Source: Candidatus Woesearchaeota archaeon
GTDB lineage: Archaea; Nanobdellota; Nanobdellia; Woesearchaeales; JACQSR01
Direction of reading: 5' to 3'
Length of the DNA stretch: 64,000 bases
Assembly: GCA_016211215.1 (NCBI GenBank)
Contig: JACQSR010000008.1
Span: 6,546-70,545, forward strand
The number at the start of each line of letters is the position of its first letter. Within the stretch, counting starts at the first letter, position 1. A model generated the notes under the pieces. It saw only the letters and a program-made list of their open reading frames with translations. It was not told the DNA's origin and made no database searches. The translations under genes were made by a program, and so were the position numbers. Of the stretch, positions 39,494 through 48,373 are shown in pieces.

Positions 39494-40114
39494 ATGGAAA
39501 AAAAATTGACTCCTGAGCAGATTGCCGAGCTGAAGGAGAAGATAAAGAACATGTCTCCGGAGGAGCTGAAGGAGTTCCAGAAAAAGCAGTGCATATTCTG
39601 CCAGATTGTCGAGGGGAGGGTTTCCGCAAAGAAAGTGTATGAAGACGAGGTTTCGATTGCAATACTTGACATAAACCCCGCAAATCCGGGGCACATACTG
39701 CTGATGCCCAGGGAGCATTACACCATTCTGCCCCAGGTTCCCGAAAGCGAGATTAACCATCTTGCGGCTGTTGCAAAAAAGCTTTCCAATGCTGTGCTGC
39801 GAGCTCTTGATGCAAAGGGGACCAACATAATTGTTGCAAACGGAGTTGCCGCAGGACAAAAAGCCCAGCACATGATGATTCACATAATCCCGAGAAAGGA
39901 AAAAGACTCCGTGGCGTTCAGCATACCGCAAAAGGAGCATTCCATGGAGGAGCTTGACAGCGTGCAGAAGAGGCTTGCCCAAAAATTCGGGACTGTTGCC
40001 GAGGAAAGGCAGGTGCCAAAACCAAAAGAAGTGGAAGCGGAAATAAAAGAGGAAAAACCGGGAAAAGTTGACCTGGATGAGATATCATCGTTGTTTTCCG
40101 GGAGAAAAAAATGA
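39494..40114 (+). CDS. HIT-family protein with non-canonical triad (H-x-M-x-H) and charged C-terminal tail
   Basis: ILDINPANPGHILLMPREH and GQKAQHMMIHIIPR. Canonical is HxHxHxx; here the middle His is Met (nt 39869-39889). Confidence 0.8.
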   Translation: MEKKLTPEQIAELKEKIKNMSPEELKEFQKKQCIFCQIVEGRVSAKKVYEDEVSIAILDINPANPGHILLMPREHYTILPQVPESEINHLAAVAKKLSNAVLRALDAKGTNIIVANGVAAGQKAQHMMIHIIPRKEKDSVAFSIPQKEHSMEELDSVQKRLAQKFGTVAEERQVPKPKEVEAEIKEEKPGKVDLDEISSLFSGRKK

Positions 40115-40641
40115 GCGAATGCGTGCTTTGCGGGATTGTGGAGTCTACGGTGCCGTCAAAGAAAATATACGAGGACGATTCCATAATTGCGGTCCTGGAC
40201 TTCATGGGCGCGCTTCCGGGACACTGCTTCGTTTTCCCGAAGAGGCACTACACCATAATGGAGCAGGTCTCAGACGAGGAAATTGGAAAAGTGTTCGAGG
40301 TTGCAAACAAAATATCATCTGCCCTGTTTGAAACGATGGAGGTGCAGGGCACGAATATCTTCATTGCAAACGGAGTTGCCGCCGGACAGCAGGCACCCCA
40401 TTTCATCTGCAACGTGATACCCCGCCTTGAAGCAGATGGGATAAACCTGCAGTGGAATACCAAGCAGCTCAGCGAGGAGGAAATGTCAACTGTCGAGCTC
40501 AAGATAAAGGAGCAGATCAGGGATGTTGTAAGCTTCAGGGCGAAGGGAAAACCCGAGGTTGCGGAAAAAAAGGCCGTAAGGATATCCGAAGAGGCAGGCG
40601 AAGAGAATTATTTAATCAGGCAGACCAGAAGAAGGCCCTGA
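40111..40641 (+). CDS. HIT-like paralogue with degenerate triad (H-x-I-x-N)
   Basis: VLDFMGALPGHCFVFPKRH and GQQAPHFICNVIPR (nt 40399-40419). ATGA overlap with the upstream HIT gene. Confidence 0.7.
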   Translation: MSECVLCGIVESTVPSKKIYEDDSIIAVLDFMGALPGHCFVFPKRHYTIMEQVSDEEIGKVFEVANKISSALFETMEVQGTNIFIANGVAAGQQAPHFICNVIPRLEADGINLQWNTKQLSEEEMSTVELKIKEQIRDVVSFRAKGKPEVAEKKAVRISEEAGEENYLIRQTRRRP

Positions 40642-43600
40642 TTATTCTGTTGTTGTAACATCATAGGTTGTCACGCCGGCATTCTGACGGACGTACCATT
40701 CGCCTTCAATGCAGGTGTCTTCCACAAGGATGTCATCAAGGTTATCACCGCTTTCAAACTGCACCCAGGAATCGTTGATGCCGTTGTTTCCGCAGCACTT
40801 TGCATAGCCTGAGTTTCCGGCATAGGATGTTGAGTAGCAGAATGTTTCATTGTGGATGTCGCACACGCCCGCATTTAATCCGGCTTCAAGAACACCCATA
40901 ATATTGCACAGGCATGAATTGTTATCGGGGTTCAATCCCTGCGCGAGGCATCCGTCTTCCACGCAGGTCTTCAGAGGGTAATAGCAGGCGGAATTTTCAA
41001 CGCAGCTGTCCTGCTCTAAGTCACAGTCAATGCAGGCGCAGGATTCTCCGGGGTCGCATGGGCCATTGAAATCACCCACTATCGGGACAGTGTAGATGCT
41101 GCCGCCAAACCTGAATCTCATGTCTTCAGGACCTTCGTCATTGGAATTCTTTAAACGGAATTCTGAAACAGACGCGTTGTATAACCCTATTGTGTCAATG
41201 CCATCGCCGTTCCAATCGCCTGCAACGGGAAATTCGTCCATAGGCACGCCGCTGCCGAAAACAATCTCCAAGCTGGACGATTCAGAGACTCTTAGTATGA
41301 ACTTTCTTTCGCCGTAAACATAAACCCCCGGCTTATCCTTTCCATCACCGTTCCAATCCCCTATGACAGGCAAACCCGCTGAGCTGAGCGGTATTGAAAT
41401 TTCCAAGTCAGCGCCACCTTCTGAATTGGAATTCCTGAGGTAGAAAACTCCGTCCAAAATATTCATTATTCCAATAGTGTAGTATCCGTCTCCGTCCCAG
41501 TCTCCTGCAATCGGCCACAAGTATGCCCTGTCGGCAGCCGGGTCCGGATTGTAGGTAAATGACAAATATGCCTGTCCCGAATCATCGCTAAAGGAGAATG
41601 TTCTGGAAGATTCGTTGTATAATCCCACTGTGCTTATTCCATCGCCGTCCCAGTCTCCGCTTATAGGCGTCAAATCATTAGGGTTAACATCGCCAAAACT
41701 GAACGTCTGGTCTGAAGAACCAGCAGTGTTTGAGTCTCTCAGATAAAATTTGCCCTCAAGGAGATTATACAGCCCAATGGTATCGACACTATTATCATCA
41801 TCGTTGCATCCCAAATTCCCGCCGCAATTGCCGCAGTCAGAACAGCACTTCCCGTCCTCGCATAACGTTGTTCCGGCTATGCATGGCTTGGTGCACAGTT
41901 CAAGCTCAGGATTGCAGGAAGCACCGTATATGCATGTGTCATTCTGCAGACTGCAATCACTGCAATCGCACCCCTCTCCAGTTTCGCAAATGCCATTTTG
42001 AATGTCGTTTATGCAGCCGGGGTATTCAGAGCCGCAGTCTGAACTGCAGCTGTATAACTGGGTGGTTGAGTTGTAGCATAAAGTTGTTCCTGCAGTGCAT
42101 GGAGGCCCGTCAACGCACGTTTTTACGCCGTAATCGCAAACTAACCCTGATGCACAGCTGTCCTGCTGTCCATTGCAGTCATCACAGTCGCATGACTCCC
42201 CTTCATCGCAGCCTGAAGTTCCGCCGTTTACAGCGCTAATACATCCCAGGTTATTGTTTCCGCAGTCGGACTGGCAGGTTCCGTCCGAGCACAATGTTGT
42301 TCCAACGGGACATTGGGGGCCGTCAACGCAGATTCCTGCAAGGTAGTCGCATGACAAGCCATCCAAACAGGAGTCCTGCTCGCTGTCGCAATCGGAGCAT
42401 GTGCAGCTTTCACCCACTTCGCAGGCTGAATCATAATCACAGGGCGCAAATCCGGTATCGCATGTGTAGCAATTGTAGCAGCAATCTCCCGTAGTGCACA
42501 ATGTTTTACCGGCATCGCAAAGCTCAGGGGCGCAGTTGGGGTCTACGGGATTTGCTCCTCGCGGACAGTCTTCATCGCAGATTAAATCATCTGAAGCATT
42601 GCAGCAGTCTCCTGCAATAGGTGTGCAATTCCCGCAGTCAGGGTCATAATCCTGCTGGCAGTTGACATCGCATACAGTGTCGTTTTCCGGCAGGCAGCAG
42701 TTATCAGGGGTGTTTTCGCATCCAATACAATCAGGGTCTATTAAAGGAACACAATCGGTATCGCAGATGTAATCCAAAGTTTCATTGCAGCAGTCATTCG
42801 GCATTGGCGTGCAATTTGGCGGGCAATCGGGGTCAACACCTGAATCGCAGTTGGGGTCGCATTGGTTGGGAGTATCATCAGTATCATCGCAGCAGTCATC
42901 TGCTGTCGGAAGGCAAGTAGTTGAACAATCAGGGTCTTTTCCTGCAGGGCAGTCTGTATCGCAGCCATTATTGCCGAGGTCATTGCAGCAGTTTCCCGGT
43001 GTTGGAAGGCAGTTGGTGCAATCGGGGTCTGCTACTTCGGTGCAGTCGGGGTCGCAGATGCCGGATGAATTTGAGGAGCAGCATCCGTCTGCCAAGCCTG
43101 TGCAGTATCTGCAGGTTGAGATGTTTAAGCCGCAATCATTGCATCCAAGAGCCCCATAGTCAAAGCCCAAATCCGTGCATGAATTGCTGCCATCCCCAAA
43201 TAGCAGGATGTTGTTCACAGTTTCGCATTCTTCATTAGCGTCAATTATTCCATCACCGCAGGTTGCAGCCCGAGTGCAGCCCGAGGTGTCCACAATGCAG
43301 TCTGTACCGCATGATAATGCGCCGCCACTAAAACTATCAAAGTCAGTGCATGCAAGGCCGCCAAGCTGAGTGCCATCGCATTGTTCTCCAAGGTTGATGG
43401 CTCCATTGCCGCATGCTCCCGGAGTTATGCCTGTGCATAAGCTTACGTTTATCAGGCATTCATTTTCATAATCAGCCGGAATGCACGATAAAGTTCCTCC
43501 AAGATAAGTATCAAAGTCGGTGCATTGGTCAGAGCCTGCGCCATAGATTGGCTGACCGGTTAATATGTTGAAATCGCATTGCTCAGCCGGGTCAATAATG

Positions 43601-46485
43601 CCATCACCGCAGGTTGCTGCCCTGGCGCAGTATGTTGTATTGAAGCCGCATGCGTCGCATTTTAATGTCCCGCCTGTGAACGTGTCAAAATCATTGCAGG
43701 TTAAGCCCCTGAGATTTGAGCCGTCACATTCCTCGCCTGTCTCAAGTATTCCGTTGCCGCAGAAAGAATTGCAGCCTGTTGTGTTCAATATGCATGTATT
43801 GTGATAACACGAGAGGGTTCCATCATAAAATCCTGCTTCAGCGCAACTGCCAACAGCACCAAAAACGCCTGCCCCTAAAGCATCGAAATCGCATTGCTCT
43901 GGAGAGTCCACATACCCGTCACCGCAGAAAATATCATGACAACCGCTTGTATCAAATGCGCATGTCTGGGTGTTGCATTTCAAAGTCCCAACATCGAAAT
44001 CCAGTTCCTGGCAGGTGTCTGTGTCGCCGAAAATGTAATCTCGGCCTGAAAAGGAAAAGGGCGCGATATCTGCAAATCCAGGGGTGTTTGAGTTTCTAAG
44101 GCGGAATGTGCTGTCTGAAGGCCTGTAAACCCCGATTGTGTCTATGCCATCTCCATTCCAGTCACCTGCAAGGGGTACATCATCTGCATTGCCAAAATCT
44201 ACATTTATATCCGGATTTCCGGCAGTATTGGAATTTCTGAGCCTGAAGCTTATTCCGTGACGAACTCCTACCGTATCAACACCATCTTTATTCCAATCTC
44301 CAATCACCGGCAGATCTCCGGATGTGCCATAAATAAATCCAACAATTAGTTCTTCTGTGTCTGCATTTACATTCTTTAGATAAAATTCGCTTGTTGACGG
44401 CCTGTAAACCCCGATTGTGTCATCACCATCTCCGTCCCAGTCGCCTACAACTGGAATGTCCCCCGCTACACCATAAGCAACCTGTATGTCCGGATAGCCA
44501 GCATTGTTTGTGTTTCTTAGCATGAAAGTGTTTGTCAACGGGGCGTAAATCCCAATTGTATTAGTTCCATCGCCGTTCCAGTCTCCGACAACAGGAACAT
44601 AGGTTTGAACTCCATAGTTAATCGTTAATTCCGGGCTTCCGGGTGTGTTTGAGTTTCTCAGGAGGAAGTTCATGGAGTTTTGAGGGTCGTTCGGAATTGG
44701 CTTGTAGAGTCCAATTGTGTCTATGCCATCATTATTCCAGTCGCCTGCAACGGGGAATAGGTTATAATAATCGCAATCTTCATTTGGGTCTAAGTATTGG
44801 TCTCCGCATACGCTTTCCTCGCATTTTGGAGTGGTTGAATTCCACCAGCACCCTAAATTGCAGTTATCGCCTGTGCAAGATAACTCATTTGTATAGTTGC
44901 CGCATTCGGCTCCAGTGCAGTCTGTGCATCTGTTTGGCCATATTAGACTGTAAACAAAGAGGCAATTCTGTCCAGCACAATCAACCGTGCATTCCTGGTA
45001 ATCGCAGAAATTCCAGACTCCATTGCCGCAGTCATCGCATGAGGTGCAGATGCACGCAGTGTCTGGCTTGCAGTCTGGGTTGTCGCAGTTGGGGCAGCCG
45101 TTTGAGGAATTTATTTCAGGACATTGAGGAATAGTATTAGGGCACTGGTCGCAGTAGTTGCTTATGCCGTCCATATCAGAGTCAAAGCTAATCCCCCCCG
45201 GAAAAGATGCATCAACAGTTATTGTAAATGTATCCTGGGCAGTCAGACCTCCGGTATCCCTTACCTGAACTGTAACATCAGAAGTTCCCTCCTGGCATGA
45301 CTCTCCTGGAGCACGGGCAGGCACAGAGCAGCTAAGATAATTCTGGTCAGCTGAAACCTGGCAATTCACAAGCGCGGGGTTTGTTTGGCTGACAAGGGTG
45401 AATGAAAGCTCGGAGGGCAAATCCTCGTTATCATTAGCTGAATTGCGCAAGTTGACAAAACCGGGATACGTCTGCCCTGAACCCGCAGGAGCGTTTACGT
45501 CCGTGATGGTTATAGTGGGCGGAGTATTTTGAACAACATTCACTGCTGTTGGCCCGCAAGTCTGCCCGAACCACCTAACATTTTCCTGAAGCATTTTCCA
45601 CCTGCTTGAATATGTTCCGGGTGTTAAAGGCGCAGTAATGCCAAACTCGAATGTATGCTGCTGGCCTGGTGCAACATTCGCAGAAACCCTGTCCCTTGCG
45701 ATACCCCACCGAAAATTGTCCTGAGGGTCCTGGGAGCCAAGCCTGTAGTTTGCTGCATCCGTCCATGTTGTACTCCCTGTGTTTTTCATCGTGACTGAAA
45801 CTGACTTCGTGGAGCCTGTTGAAATTGAAGCCGGTATGGTGTTGCTTACGCACTGGGAATCATCCGTAATTGGTGTATAGTCTACAAGGAGATATACCGG
45901 ATAGCCGCCGGAATCACCGCCTGTTGTTGTTGCACTCATAAAATAATAACTTGTAAGCTCGGGATATCTCCAAATCCTAAATGAGGATACCCAATTTGGG
46001 TTGATTACTGCATTATTTTTATCCAGCACAATGTCTTTGTAACCTTCGGAACTGCACACCAGGGTTCCAACTTTTGGCTTAAGGACCGTCCATTGACATG
46101 CGCCAGTTGCAGGGATGTACGGATTAATCGAGTCTATGTTAAGGGAGGTTGCAGTTGTTGTAGGCCACTCGTTTGGATTTGGACCTACAAACTTCTGGCA
46201 GTAAATCCTCAGCGTAAGGGAGTTCAGGGTGAATGCATCGGGCAGGGATGAAGTATCAAACTGTACAAAACCTTCGGTAAGCTCATTCTCACTTGGAGTA
46301 TATCTTGCCTGTATGCGCTGGCATCCATTTATGCTGAGAGTGCTCCCGGCAGTGCCTGTGCACCATCCACCGCCACTGCACGAAGCAGCATTCTGTATCT
46401 GGACAAAATCTGCATAAACCCCAGAAGTCAAGATAACTAACGCAAGAACAAGTATTGCAAACCTCGCCTTTTTCATCCACACCAT
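40642..46485 (-). CDS. giant (1947 aa) secreted cysteine-rich modular surface protein with FG-GAP/VCBS-like repeat blocks
   Basis: Sec signal MKKARFAILVLALVILTSGVYA/DF. NBR1-FW-like Ig domain (TMKNTGSTTW..RWKM..RWFG). Ig-like domain (PPTITITD..TFTITVDA). TSP3-like DSDMDGISNYCDQCPN. Several Cys-repeat families. Two blocks of GDW(N/D)GDG.DT.G.Y repeats. Own TATA (RC of GCTTTTAAATAACT at ~46519-46532). Confidence 0.9.
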   Translation of the reverse strand: MVWMKKARFAILVLALVILTSGVYADFVQIQNAASCSGGGWCTGTAGSTLSINGCQRIQARYTPSENELTEGFVQFDTSSLPDAFTLNSLTLRIYCQKFVGPNPNEWPTTTATSLNIDSINPYIPATGACQWTVLKPKVGTLVCSSEGYKDIVLDKNNAVINPNWVSSFRIWRYPELTSYYFMSATTTGGDSGGYPVYLLVDYTPITDDSQCVSNTIPASISTGSTKSVSVTMKNTGSTTWTDAANYRLGSQDPQDNFRWGIARDRVSANVAPGQQHTFEFGITAPLTPGTYSSRWKMLQENVRWFGQTCGPTAVNVVQNTPPTITITDVNAPAGSGQTYPGFVNLRNSANDNEDLPSELSFTLVSQTNPALVNCQVSADQNYLSCSVPARAPGESCQEGTSDVTVQVRDTGGLTAQDTFTITVDASFPGGISFDSDMDGISNYCDQCPNTIPQCPEINSSNGCPNCDNPDCKPDTACICTSCDDCGNGVWNFCDYQECTVDCAGQNCLFVYSLIWPNRCTDCTGAECGNYTNELSCTGDNCNLGCWWNSTTPKCEESVCGDQYLDPNEDCDYYNLFPVAGDWNNDGIDTIGLYKPIPNDPQNSMNFLLRNSNTPGSPELTINYGVQTYVPVVGDWNGDGTNTIGIYAPLTNTFMLRNTNNAGYPDIQVAYGVAGDIPVVGDWDGDGDDTIGVYRPSTSEFYLKNVNADTEELIVGFIYGTSGDLPVIGDWNKDGVDTVGVRHGISFRLRNSNTAGNPDINVDFGNADDVPLAGDWNGDGIDTIGVYRPSDSTFRLRNSNTPGFADIAPFSFSGRDYIFGDTDTCQELDFDVGTLKCNTQTCAFDTSGCHDIFCGDGYVDSPEQCDFDALGAGVFGAVGSCAEAGFYDGTLSCYHNTCILNTTGCNSFCGNGILETGEECDGSNLRGLTCNDFDTFTGGTLKCDACGFNTTYCARAATCGDGIIDPAEQCDFNILTGQPIYGAGSDQCTDFDTYLGGTLSCIPADYENECLINVSLCTGITPGACGNGAINLGEQCDGTQLGGLACTDFDSFSGGALSCGTDCIVDTSGCTRAATCGDGIIDANEECETVNNILLFGDGSNSCTDLGFDYGALGCNDCGLNISTCRYCTGLADGCCSSNSSGICDPDCTEVADPDCTNCLPTPGNCCNDLGNNGCDTDCPAGKDPDCSTTCLPTADDCCDDTDDTPNQCDPNCDSGVDPDCPPNCTPMPNDCCNETLDYICDTDCVPLIDPDCIGCENTPDNCCLPENDTVCDVNCQQDYDPDCGNCTPIAGDCCNASDDLICDEDCPRGANPVDPNCAPELCDAGKTLCTTGDCCYNCYTCDTGFAPCDYDSACEVGESCTCSDCDSEQDSCLDGLSCDYLAGICVDGPQCPVGTTLCSDGTCQSDCGNNNLGCISAVNGGTSGCDEGESCDCDDCNGQQDSCASGLVCDYGVKTCVDGPPCTAGTTLCYNSTTQLYSCSSDCGSEYPGCINDIQNGICETGEGCDCSDCSLQNDTCIYGASCNPELELCTKPCIAGTTLCEDGKCCSDCGNCGGNLGCNDDDNSVDTIGLYNLLEGKFYLRDSNTAGSSDQTFSFGDVNPNDLTPISGDWDGDGISTVGLYNESSRTFSFSDDSGQAYLSFTYNPDPAADRAYLWPIAGDWDGDGYYTIGIMNILDGVFYLRNSNSEGGADLEISIPLSSAGLPVIGDWNGDGKDKPGVYVYGERKFILRVSESSSLEIVFGSGVPMDEFPVAGDWNGDGIDTIGLYNASVSEFRLKNSNDEGPEDMRFRFGGSIYTVPIVGDFNGPCDPGESCACIDCDLEQDSCVENSACYYPLKTCVEDGCLAQGLNPDNNSCLCNIMGVLEAGLNAGVCDIHNETFCYSTSYAGNSGYAKCCGNNGINDSWVQFESGDNLDDILVEDTCIEGEWYVRQNAGVTTYDVTTTE
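41068..41805 (-). repeat. FG-GAP/VCBS-like repeat block 2 (about 5 units, cysteine-free), aa 1561-1806
   Basis: ISGDWDGDGISTVGLY, IAGDWDGDGYYTIGIM, VIGDWNGDGKDKPGVY, VAGDWNGDGIDTIGLY and IVGDFNG. Confidence 0.75.
41806..42531 (-). repeat. three and a half ~70-aa repeats C.(A/V)GTTLC ... GE.C.C.DC...QDSC..GL.CDY....CVDGP, aa 1319-1560
   Basis: QCPVGTTLCSDGTC..GCDEGESCDCDDCNGQQDSCASGLVCDYGVKTCVDGP and its neighbours. The fourth unit stops after PCIAGTTLCEDGKCCSDCGNCGGNLGC. Confidence 0.7.
42532..43101 (-). repeat. six ~27-34-aa six-cysteine repeats C.P...(D/N)CC(x7-9)CD.(D/N)C(x4-8)DP(D/N)C, aa 1129-1318
   Basis: For example TNCLPTPGNCCNDLGNNGCDTDCPAGKDPDC, PPNCTPMPNDCCNETLDYICDTDCVPLIDPDC and IGCENTPDNCCLPENDTVCDVNCQQDYDPDC. 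Confidence 0.75.
43102..43938 (-). repeat. five intact ~50-60-aa CG(D/N)G...E(E/Q)CD cysteine repeats (myxococcal cysteine-rich-repeat-like), aa 850-1128
   Basis: FCGDGYVDSPEQCD, FCGNGILETGEECD, TCGDGIIDPAEQCD, ACGNGAINLGEQCD and TCGDGIIDANEECE. Each is followed by C.DFD...G(T/A)L.C...C......C. Confidence 0.7.
44032..44757 (-). repeat. FG-GAP/VCBS-like repeat block 1 (5 units, cysteine-free), protein aa 577-818
   Basis: Units begin VAGDWNNDGIDTIGLY, VVGDWNGDGTNTIGIY, VVGDWDGDGDDTIGVY, VIGDWNKDGVDTVGV and LAGDWNGDGIDTIGVY. Each is followed by F.LRNSN..G. Confidence 0.75.
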
Positions 46486-46540: not shown

Positions 46541-47464
46541 TCAGCCCAATGAAGGCACGGTGAAATCTATTTTGCCTGCACCTGAGCACTTGCTTTCGTC
46601 GTTCGCCCAGGAAATGTCCTTTTCACCGGAAACAAGGCGGATAGTTTTGGCGGCCCTGCAATCATCGACAGAAATTTTCCTTGAGCCGGAGATAGTGCCA
46701 TGCGACTGGCCGTCTATGAACAGGTTGCCGGCAAGCTTCTGGCCCGTGTCTTCGGCGTAGAAGTCAAGAACCACCTCAGTTATTCCCACTTCCTTCCTCT
46801 TGATAACATAGGTTATTTTTTTTGAGGAGCAATCGCCGGGATATGCATCAGCAATGTAAACTTCATCACCCTGCTTGAGCGCAAGCTGGCTGGCGTTGCT
46901 GCAGAAGTCAAGCGGCAGGCCGGAAAAATAATCACCGGAGAACTCCCCTATTTCGGCACCGTTGTAGAGAACCTTGCCGTACATAAGGTCGTTTGTCTCT
47001 GAATCCACAAAAGCAATTTTTGGCGGAATGGTTCTGTTGTAGAAAAATATGGCCACGATGGAAAGTATCAGCACTATTGCAATAACAAGCAGCCAAAACT
47101 GGGGCTTTTTCCAGTAAGACTTTTTTTCAATGCCAACCGGGTTCTTTGCAGGAACTTCCTCGGCGATTTTTTTGGGCTCTGCATCATCAGACTCCGCTTC
47201 TTCATCAGCACTCTGCTGTGTTTCCTGCTTTTCCTCTTCTTCGGACTCCTGGGTTTCTTCATCTTCCTGCGTTTTTTCGTCTTCCTCGAGGGTTTCAAAG
47301 ACAAAGGAACGGGTTGGGGTTTCCGGAATTGGCTCCGGGGGCTCTATGGGCTCTTTGGATGCCTGCAAAAAAAATTCGTCAATCAGCTTTTTCTTTGAAC
47401 CCCACTCCTTATCAGATGAGTCCTGCGCCGGCTTTTCCTCTTCAAGAATGTCATCTTCCACCAT
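46541..47464 (-). CDS. single-pass membrane protein with acidic cytoplasmic N-terminus and extracytoplasmic domain
   Basis: Glu/Asp-rich first ~115 aa. TM FWLLVIAIVLILSIVAIFFY. Lies between the peptidase gene and the giant gene on the same strand. Confidence 0.55.
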   Translation of the reverse strand: MVEDDILEEEKPAQDSSDKEWGSKKKLIDEFFLQASKEPIEPPEPIPETPTRSFVFETLEEDEKTQEDEETQESEEEEKQETQQSADEEAESDDAEPKKIAEEVPAKNPVGIEKKSYWKKPQFWLLVIAIVLILSIVAIFFYNRTIPPKIAFVDSETNDLMYGKVLYNGAEIGEFSGDYFSGLPLDFCSNASQLALKQGDEVYIADAYPGDCSSKKITYVIKRKEVGITEVVLDFYAEDTGQKLAGNLFIDGQSHGTISGSRKISVDDCRAAKTIRLVSGEKDISWANDESKCSGAGKIDFTVPSLG

Positions 47465-47485
47465 GTCCCTTTTCGGGAAAAGCTA

Positions 47486-48373
47486 CTATATAAATGTTTT
47501 TAATAGCAGGAGTATATAATTCCTAAATACCAGGGCGCAAATGAATGCCAAAAAAAAGCTTGGCACAAAGGGTATGCCCTCCTTTACCATTATGCGCCTA
47601 ATCTTGCCGTTCATTTTGAGCCTTAGCAGGGCTTTAATCTGCCTTTTCTCAATCCCCAAATCCTTTGGCCCGCATATCCTTTTTCCGTTGATTATGACCT
47701 CTTTGGCAATCCAATCTCCTTCGGTAAGCTGCTCGGGCTTTACCCATTTTTTCATGCACCCGTTTTCCATCGAGCGTATAAAGACCCAGAGGGGAAAAAC
47801 CAAAACAAGGGCAGACGGAAGTATCAGAAGGGCCAAACGCATATCCTGAGTTGAGAGAAATGCCAAAATAAAAAGAAAAATGGCGAGCAGGGAGGCTGAA
47901 GCCGAGATATAGATAAAATTTTTTCCTGCAACAATCTTTTTCGCTTCGCGCTTGACTGCCCTGAAGTTTTTAATGCCAACCGCAATGCTCCATACAACGC
48001 CGTATATTGCGCCAACAAGCAGCAGGCTTACCAGAAAAGACAGCATGAAAGTATCCATTGAAGCCCTTATGCCAAACAATGCCCCAAGGCCCATGAGAAG
48101 CTTTGAATCTCCGCCGCCCCACTGGCCTGAGTAGTACATCCCATAGGATACAAGCACAAACACCAGCAGCCCGACAATGCTGTAGCCTATGAAGCTAAAG
48201 TCATGGTAAATCAAGGAAAGCAGTAAGTTTATACCTAACCCGGTGCCGATTAGCGCAAAATTCAGGGAGTCCGGAACTTCCCTTGTCCTGATATCCGATA
48301 TAGAAGCCACCAAAAGCACAACAAAAGCTATTGCAATAAGGATTATTTCTCCAACCGCCATGACCTTCCCCAC
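47486..48373 (-). CDS. A24-family prepilin/preflagellin peptidase (PibD/FlaK-like)
   Basis: First catalytic Asp region VASISDIRTREVPD. Second in WGGGDSKLLMGLG (GxGD). Multi-TM, with an extra C-terminal soluble domain. Confidence 0.8.
   Translation of the reverse strand: MGKVMAVGEIILIAIAFVVLLVASISDIRTREVPDSLNFALIGTGLGINLLLSLIYHDFSFIGYSIVGLLVFVLVSYGMYYSGQWGGGDSKLLMGLGALFGIRASMDTFMLSFLVSLLLVGAIYGVVWSIAVGIKNFRAVKREAKKIVAGKNFIYISASASLLAIFLFILAFLSTQDMRLALLILPSALVLVFPLWVFIRSMENGCMKKWVKPEQLTEGDWIAKEVIINGKRICGPKDLGIEKRQIKALLRLKMNGKIRRIMVKEGIPFVPSFFLAFICALVFRNYILLLLKTFI

Follow-up and report, generated by a model that had tools for sequence, protein, structure and literature searches.

Beta-propellers nested within cysteine-rich repeat units of a giant predicted surface protein from a Woesearchaeota archaeon

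Domain nesting is itself a well-known principle of protein architecture. In integrin beta subunits, for example, the PSI, hybrid and betaI domains are nested, with the hybrid domain lying inside the cysteine-rich PSI domain, which is re-closed by a long-range disulfide. Here we describe a related arrangement in a stretch of 64,000 nucleotides from Candidatus Woesearchaeota archaeon (assembly GCA_016211215.1, contig JACQSR010000008.1, positions 6,546 to 70,545), which is referred to as the window. One gene of the window (40642..46485, minus strand; NCBI HY638_01225) encodes a giant cysteine-rich protein of 1947 residues, predicted to be secreted or anchored, in which two cysteine-free beta-propellers appear to be spliced into cysteine-rich repeat units of two different types. 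As in the integrin beta PSI-hybrid pair, a loop of one domain would accommodate a second, globular domain, making the host discontinuous in sequence. The archaeal hosts differ in being tandem prokaryotic mini-repeats (one DUF4215-like, the other an undescribed 12-cysteine unit), and the archaeal guests in being whole propellers or laminin G (LamG) domains, which vary among orthologues by exchange and by presence or absence.

Cysteine-rich extracellular proteins of more than 1500 residues, with signal peptides, have been described in symbionts of the candidate phyla radiation (CPR) and DPANN, e.g. in Peribacteria; some of them have an FG-GAP annotation and weak similarity to the Myxococcus repeat, and the proteins vary between strains and have been proposed to play a role in attachment (PMC4736985). 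That study describes their composition and annotation, and reports no nested organisation. With the DUF4215 / Myxococcus cysteine-rich repeat (PF13948, TIGR02232), the intact units of our first host type share the CG[DN]G...E[EQ]CD motif, but they constitute a 6-cysteine variant of 45–59 residues with an extra G-T-L-x-C hairpin. The guests resemble the integrin-type FG-GAP/VCBS propellers (PF01839, PF13517) (e.g. PVL/AAL2, ITFG2, Bap1 and TcB) in their four-stranded blades, in which a D-x-[DN]-x-D-G loop links strand 1 to strand 2; integrin-type propellers have seven or eight blades, whereas the guests have five and score below the Pfam cut-off.

A further comparison is with the umbrella toxins of Streptomyces. 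The UmbA lectin families comprise five-, six- and seven-bladed propellers as well as Laminin_G_3 domains, and these lectins set the target specificity at the cell surface; the glycan ligand of UmbA4 is teichuronic acid (PMC13274773). Two of these classes, five-bladed propellers and Laminin_G_3, are found as guests in the archaeal family (PMC13274773 for UmbA). In UmbA the lectins are C-terminal and arranged in series, whereas the archaeal guests are nested; UmbA4 moreover has six blades rather than five, shows no sequence-level match to the guests, and belongs to another organism and protein context. A literature search found no paper describing the nesting of domains in such cysteine-rich units. 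New in the present case are, first, the hosts, which are prokaryotic mini-repeats in tandem and include one type that no Pfam model covers. It is also new that closely related proteins exchange lectin-class guests at fixed loops, and that such an arrangement occurs in predicted surface proteins of DPANN archaea.

Two split units and their guests

The cysteine-rich array of the protein consists, in this order, of six A-type units with six cysteines each, six B-type "CC" repeats of 32 residues, four C-type units with 12–14 cysteines, and a C-terminal domain with eight cysteines. The protein contains 164 cysteines in total, but none between C571 and C825 and none between C1560 and C1810. These two gaps correspond to the guests, which interrupt the A-type unit A0 and the C-type unit C4. 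The hosts, the guests and the neighbouring intact units are located as follows (positions in the window; the cysteines of an A-type unit are numbered C1 to C6):

44773..44808, minus strand: N-terminal half of the split A-type unit A0 (DUF4215-like, six cysteines), residues 560–571, with C1 and C2 (CGDQYLDPNEDC)
44014..44772, minus strand: guest 1, a cysteine-free five-bladed FG-GAP-like beta-propeller, residues 572–824
43939..44013, minus strand: C-terminal half of the split unit A0, residues 825–849, with C3 to C6
43111..43926, minus strand: five intact A-type units, A1–A5, residues 854–1125
41893..42519, minus strand: three intact C-type units, C1–C3, with 12–14 cysteines each, residues 1323–1531
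41806..41883, minus strand: N-terminal half of the split C-type unit C4, seven cysteines, residues 1535–1560
41059..41805, minus strand: guest 2, a cysteine-free five-bladed propeller, residues 1561–1809
40963..41058, minus strand: C-terminal half of the split unit C4, seven cysteines, residues 1810–1841

A first-pass annotation of this DNA had proposed that the flanks of propeller block 1 (upstream VCGDQYLDPNEDCDYYN, downstream GDTDTCQELDFDVGTLKCNTQTCAFDTSGC) are the first and second half of a single cysteine-repeat unit. A hidden Markov model (HMM) built solely from 25 bacterial 6-cysteine units of other proteins (P0031, P0014) matches these flanks with complementary halves of the profile: residues 560–576 align with positions 1–17, and residues 822–849 with positions 19–45, the C-terminal half scoring 23–32 bits. 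When the insert is removed, A0 scores 45–46 bits, which is above each of the five intact units (19–37.5 bits), whereas the highest score in 500 cysteine-preserving shuffles was 13 bits, and none of the 500 reached the observed score, either for the whole unit or for any half. The insertion sits between C2 and C3, which is the sole place of large insertions and deletions in A-type units and hence an indel hotspot. The segment with units A1–A5 passes the membership threshold of Pfam family PF13948 (DUF4215) with 31.7 bits, the cut-off being 27; this match was seen only with the segment, and no match to PF13948 was obtained in the Pfam scan of the whole protein. In general, neither DUF4215 nor FG-GAP was picked up when the whole protein was scanned against Pfam and NCBIfam, and scans of separate segments were required. 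Sequence and profile searches identified no relative of the A-type unit with a solved structure.

The same picture emerges for the second block. An HMM built from units C1–C3 of the 1947-residue protein and its orthologue aligns residues 1535–1562 with profile positions 1–29 and residues 1807–1843 with positions 30–66 (31.5 bits for the C-terminal half). The rejoined unit C4 scores 47–51 bits (73–96 bits for C1–C3), as compared to a maximum of 18 bits in 500 cysteine-preserving shuffles, and again none of these attained the observed score for the whole unit or any half. The insertion lies between the final cysteine of the N-terminal half and the first cysteine of the C-terminal half, i.e. at the loop in the unit pattern C.GT.LC.DG.C...C....GC - loop - C..GE.C.C.DC...QD.C..G..C......C. 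This C-type unit has no match in Pfam or NCBIfam. An exhaustive search among 1.84 billion entries, with the insert-free segment of the orthologue P0002 as query, yielded a family of only 60 representatives, and those members with a source name are from DPANN or unclassified archaea. For both blocks, therefore, the complementary profile halves and the scores of the rejoined units bear out that the flanks are two halves of one repeat unit. The block coordinates of the first-pass annotation are right to within a few residues, and the observation of nesting is confirmed, far above chance. A simple alignment of the cysteine-rich units was used; when the half-units of the family were added, MAFFT either spread the propeller rows over the cysteine columns or set N-terminal halves on C-terminal halves.

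Structure prediction of residues 545–910 and 1460–1850 with AlphaFold2 (AF2) gave confident models for both guests (predicted local distance difference test score, pLDDT, >90), each with 20 strands that form five blades of four strands. Together with the HMM halves, these models agree with the earlier claim that complete propellers of ~250 residues, free of cysteine, are inserted in an internal loop of two disulfide-rich modules of different type. In the model, the first strand of guest 2 is strand 2 of blade 1 and its last is strand 1 of that same blade (velcro closure), and its block is exactly the canonical span of the propeller module. A search with a 300-residue query identified this module in 4710 proteins (E <= 0.001); the matches listed are all shorter than ~525 residues, with neither the query protein nor P0002 among them, and long nested proteins may be missed. 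The homologues are mostly terminal modules of secreted enzymes. In bacterial proteins the canonical module is usually C-terminal and typically consists of five repeats, running from '..DTIGvYRP' to 'GDWDG'; its partner domains include matrixin, Amidase_2, CHAP, M23, GH25, PPC and CAP. The module consensus 'DTIGvYRP...LRNSNT.G..D...FG...P..GDWDGDG' (from P0035-P0154 and both guests) thus has thousands of members, and no Pfam model at threshold.

The best structural match in Foldseek for the model of the guest 2 region (residues 1460–1850) is UmbA4, the teichuronic-acid-binding propeller (9oee_A; E 8.8e-10, probability 1.0; 277 aligned columns, 18% identity). In fold, the two blocks match FG-GAP-type and lectin propellers: ITFG2, the GlcNAc-binding (N-acetylglucosamine-binding) lectins PVL/AAL2, integrin alpha, Bap1 and TcB, with integrin-type propellers among the top Foldseek matches. 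The loop of the guests is D-x-N-x-D-G-x-D and reads D-W-N-G-D-G-x-D-T. Relative to DxDxDGxxD, the calcium-loop motif of integrins, it has one residue fewer, and its last Asp comes one position sooner. A calcium dependence of the guests, as put forward in the first-pass annotation, would be a guess at the level of this motif.

Blocks 1 and 2 share ~40% identity, whereas block 2 shares 44% with an unrelated protein. An origin of block 2 by duplication of block 1 within the gene is ruled out on these grounds, and because block 2 is closer to the unrelated protein than to block 1, the two blocks are separate acquisitions. Base composition shows no signal of recent horizontal transfer of the blocks, as their GC content and their GC content at third codon positions (GC3) are like those of the remainder of the gene.

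Intact sites and other guests in relatives

The state of the relevant units in the window protein and three relatives is as follows:

Window protein (Q), Ca. Woesearchaeota, 1947 residues: A0 split by a five-bladed propeller; A1 intact; C4 split by a five-bladed propeller
P0002, Ca. Nanoarchaeia, 1670 residues (partial): A0 split by a five-bladed propeller; A1 intact; C4 intact
P0155, 1924 residues: A0 intact; A1 split by a classical FG-GAP propeller; C4 intact
P0156, Nanoarchaeota, 1503 residues: A0 absent; A1 absent; C4 intact

P0002 shares ~70% identity with the window protein and is collinear with it over the whole length of P0002; as its gene also has the same neighbourhood (genes for histidyl-tRNA synthetase (HisRS), prenyltransferase and Peptidase_A24, a gene of unknown function, and the giant gene), it is a positional orthologue. 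Its C4 unit is uninterrupted ('...CGGNLPC-SGGAPNGV-CEQGESC...'). In P0155, the orthologue of the A-type unit that is split in the window protein is uninterrupted (VCGNEIVDPNELCDF...CQKAGYDAGTLGC...), and the next unit, A1, carries an insert of 335 residues in the C2–C3 loop, i.e. the loop used by guest 1. In Pfam, this insert scores 73 bits with FG-GAP_3 and 46 bits with FG-GAP. P0156 has four intact A-type units, four intact C-type units and no propeller, and is without a counterpart of A0 or A1. Each insert of the window protein thus has a natural "empty site" control, since A0 is intact in P0155, and C4 in P0002, P0155 and P0156. The comparison with homologues lacking the inserts, which had been suggested as a check, accordingly shows, for each insert, that the corresponding unit of a homologue is uninterrupted. 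As C4 in three orthologues and all paralogous units are intact, parsimony suggests that block 2 was gained in the window lineage.

Guest 1 itself differs between the two orthologues. In the window protein (44014..44772, residues 572–824) strand 1 ('LFPVAGDWNNDG') is present at the N-terminus and a C-terminal closing strand is missing. In guest 1 of P0002 (residues 565–810), strand 2 ('IDTVGVYRP') comes first, and an extra 'DIPVVGDWDGIG' follows at the end. With ~60% identity over the block, the propeller closing strand looks to have undergone a natural circular shift.

Automated scanning for partial HMM matches that complement each other identified three further proteins (P0174, P0177 and P0172) in which a C-type unit is split at profile position 29/30. 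Their inserts have a length of 220–237 residues and match Laminin_G_3 at 73–89 bits. The homologues P0162, P0160, P0165, P0166 and P0186 are collinear with P0174 on both sides of the insert and are without the 237 residues. Judged from these comparisons, the nested-domain architecture is real and recurrent in the archaeal family, where three types of guest have entered two loop positions in at least four events. The two insertions in the window protein are independent of each other, and the family reuses the same loops for different guests. The first-pass annotation had read the double use of one solution as functional design rather than random shuffling; of this reading, the part that excludes random shuffling gains support, in that relatives carry other domains in these loops, namely a different FG-GAP propeller or Laminin_G_3.

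An extra region of ~250 residues, with the motif 'DNDCDGLIDEPEF', is found in series between complete C-type units in P0162 (residues ~790–1040) and P0166 (residues ~720–975); it was seen in several family members.

Remaining features of the protein and its gene neighbourhood

The open reading frame product is identical over its full length to P0001 ('hypothetical protein HY638_01225'; 100% identity), whose annotated start lies three codons further downstream, giving 1944 residues. The P0001 cluster has 2 member sequences and 1 contig. Outside the split units, the protein has the following features:

residues 1–25: N-terminal hydrophobic signal/anchor
residues 231–309: NBR1-Ig-like domain (PF16158)
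residues 445–555: cysteine-rich region
42532..43104, minus strand: six B-type "CC" repeats of 32 residues with six cysteines each, residues 1128–1318, read from the sequence
40645..40950, minus strand: conserved C-terminal 8-cysteine domain, residues 1846–1947

Between the signal/anchor and the NBR1-Ig-like domain lies an N-terminal domain without family assignment. The B-type repeats, which join the two host arrays, follow the pattern C-x6-CC-x7-C-x3-C-x7-C ('NCLPTPGNCCNDLGNNGCDTDCPAGKDPDC') and are kept in the orthologues; a Pfam search gave no match for them. The C-terminal domain is collinear with that of P0002, P0155 and P0156.

The neighbours of the gene in the window are housekeeping genes and a prepilin-type peptidase, and a conserved gene of unknown function adjoins the giant gene upstream. 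The latter gene (307 residues; 355 in locus L001) and the gene for the type IV prepilin-like peptidase (Peptidase_A24) are located directly upstream of the giant gene, at 46541-48373. Both assemblies have this pair in that position (5988-7943 in L001), and the three genes may represent a conserved surface-structure neighbourhood. On the other side, at 39494-40641, two adjoining genes for HIT-domain proteins (206 and 176 residues) are encoded on the strand opposite to the giant gene, the second of which stops one base short of the 3' end of the giant gene.

Interpretation

Taken as a whole, the observations are very probably best explained by propellers that are nested in frame in two types of cysteine-rich unit of a giant extracellular DPANN protein, with guests that may be lectin-like. 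A first question is whether each host unit is a single domain. In intact units of both types, the insertion point is a loop of 5–17 residues and no linker (5–15 residues in 100 distinct C-type units), and from this comparison of units the insertion points are natural length-variable loops. The large majority of the C-type units (81/100) have five cysteines before and seven after the insertion point, another 7/100 have 7+7, and P0195 contains one isolated 12-cysteine C-type unit, preceded by 60 residues free of cysteine. Given the 5+7 distribution and the isolated unit, at least one disulfide would cross the insertion point if all cysteines are paired, and by inference the C-type unit would be an autonomous 12-cysteine domain.

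Alternatively, the "halves" could be independent mini-modules with the propellers simply lying in line between domains, and the phase of the repeats could have been chosen such that they look nested. Pfam indeed phases DUF4215 otherwise, its best match running from the fourth cysteine of one unit to the second of the next, the A-type halves have even numbers of cysteines (2 and 4), and AF2 predicts a confident fold for none of the cysteine-rich units. We nevertheless prefer the repeat phase of the first-pass annotation over that of Pfam, because lone A-type units in P0031 begin at CG[DN]G and finish at C6. The A array likewise runs from C1 to C6 as six whole units that are collinear in the orthologues, the C-type cysteine counts force a disulfide across the insertion point under full pairing, and intact units have a short loop rather than a linker at that point, all of which makes a mere in-line order quite improbable. 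An origin of the blocks from chimeric joins in assembly or binning of a metagenome-assembled genome is scarcely credible: block 2 is known from a single contig, but both inserts are in frame, begin and end exactly at the canonical module boundaries and leave the host halves intact, while the GC and GC3 of the blocks resemble those of the remainder of the gene. Moreover, block 1 is common to the orthologue from another assembly and to a further cluster member from other sources, and analogous inserts occur in five other proteins.

Nesting of the propellers could also be real but neutral, resulting from chance insertions into permissive loops of fast-evolving, repeat-rich genes, with no display function. 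The varying presence of guests among close relatives is in line with such neutrality, as is the finding that none of the 301 A-type units in 84 other proteins (mostly from Myxococcota and all <500 residues, so that long nested proteins may be missed) is split. However, the guests are intact and well conserved, with high pLDDT and with all five blade motifs kept, guest 1 has been kept in two lineages at ~60% identity, and all guests belong to fold classes that are used as lectins; four or five events at two loop positions in a family of ~60 representatives also amount to a high rate. We consider neutral nesting to be rather unlikely.

Several observations weigh against nested, lectin-like propellers as the preferred explanation. 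As none of the 301 units in these 84 short proteins is split, nesting is not a general property of the A-type repeat; several of these 84 proteins carry a PF13948 assignment, and several have the source name 'cysteine-rich repeat protein'. With its 2+4 cysteines, the A-type unit requires no cross-half disulfide by parity, and its N-terminal half could form a hairpin of its own. Contact between the host halves is seen in no model: in the AF2 predictions every cysteine-rich part, including the intact controls A1 and C3, has pLDDT <50-70. For the guests, no relative in the PDB was found at the sequence or profile level. Of the earlier description of the blocks as FG-GAP/VCBS-like, the fold stands, in view of the four-stranded blades and the FG-GAP-type matches in Foldseek, but Pfam membership does not, as the guests score only 16.9 and 16.1 bits with FG-GAP_3 (PF13517), below the cut-off of 26.9. 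Finally, the template modelling scores (TM-scores) of the Foldseek matches are only 0.3–0.4, because the targets have 6–8 blades and the queries carry disordered flanks.

In two unrelated types of unit, a complete five-bladed propeller has thus entered a naturally length-variable loop in frame. For the tolerance and the function of this arrangement we propose the following. According to the models, the chain ends of the guests adjoin each other. In guest 2 and in guest 1 of the orthologue, these ends would be neighbouring strands of one blade, at the place where a normal blade has the D-x-N-x-D-G loop; in guest 2 they must be close, since its start (strand 2) and its end (strand 1) belong to the same blade, and the host would occupy the tip of the loop between strands 1 and 2 of blade 1. 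With adjoining ends, a short host loop could be replaced without separating the host halves. The cysteine-rich array would then make up an unbroken stalk, stabilised by disulfides, with the guests projecting sideways, possibly as modules that bind carbohydrates or cell surfaces, and the protein could be an adhesin for the host cell of the symbiont or for a substrate. A lectin-like role of the guests is suggested by the fold matches to UmbA4 and PVL/AAL2, by the lectin classes of UmbA, and by the partner domains Amidase_2, CHAP, M23, GH25 and matrixin in bacteria.

DPANN archaea live attached to other cells. A role as adhesin would fit this lifestyle, as well as the earlier observations on cysteine-rich proteins of ultra-small symbionts (PMC4736985). 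We give an even chance to this picture of a putative adhesin with a continuous disulfide stalk and lateral heads for binding of glycans or cell surfaces. More tentatively, and with considerable reserve, the loops might serve as cassette sites at which lectin-type domains (five-bladed propeller, classical FG-GAP, LamG) are gained, lost or exchanged between close lineages, thereby re-tuning attachment to the host surface. Such cassette sites would be comparable to phage tail fibres and umbrella toxins in the swapping of receptor-binding domains and the diversification of lectins, but would differ from these in that the domains are nested inside an unbroken disulfide stalk.

The family draws attention to two abundant modules without a Pfam model above threshold, namely the five-bladed propeller, with its thousands of members, and the 12-cysteine archaeal repeat. 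It also provides natural pairs with and without insert for studying how domains enter the loops of tiny disulfide-rich modules, including one pair of orthologues in which the propeller closing strand lies at the N-terminal end of the insert in one protein and at the C-terminal end in the other. To our knowledge, the way in which DPANN archaea recognise their hosts is largely unknown. The present gene family represents a concrete candidate for such host recognition, with a predicted disulfide-rich stalk and interchangeable lectin-like loop domains that differ between syntenic orthologues.

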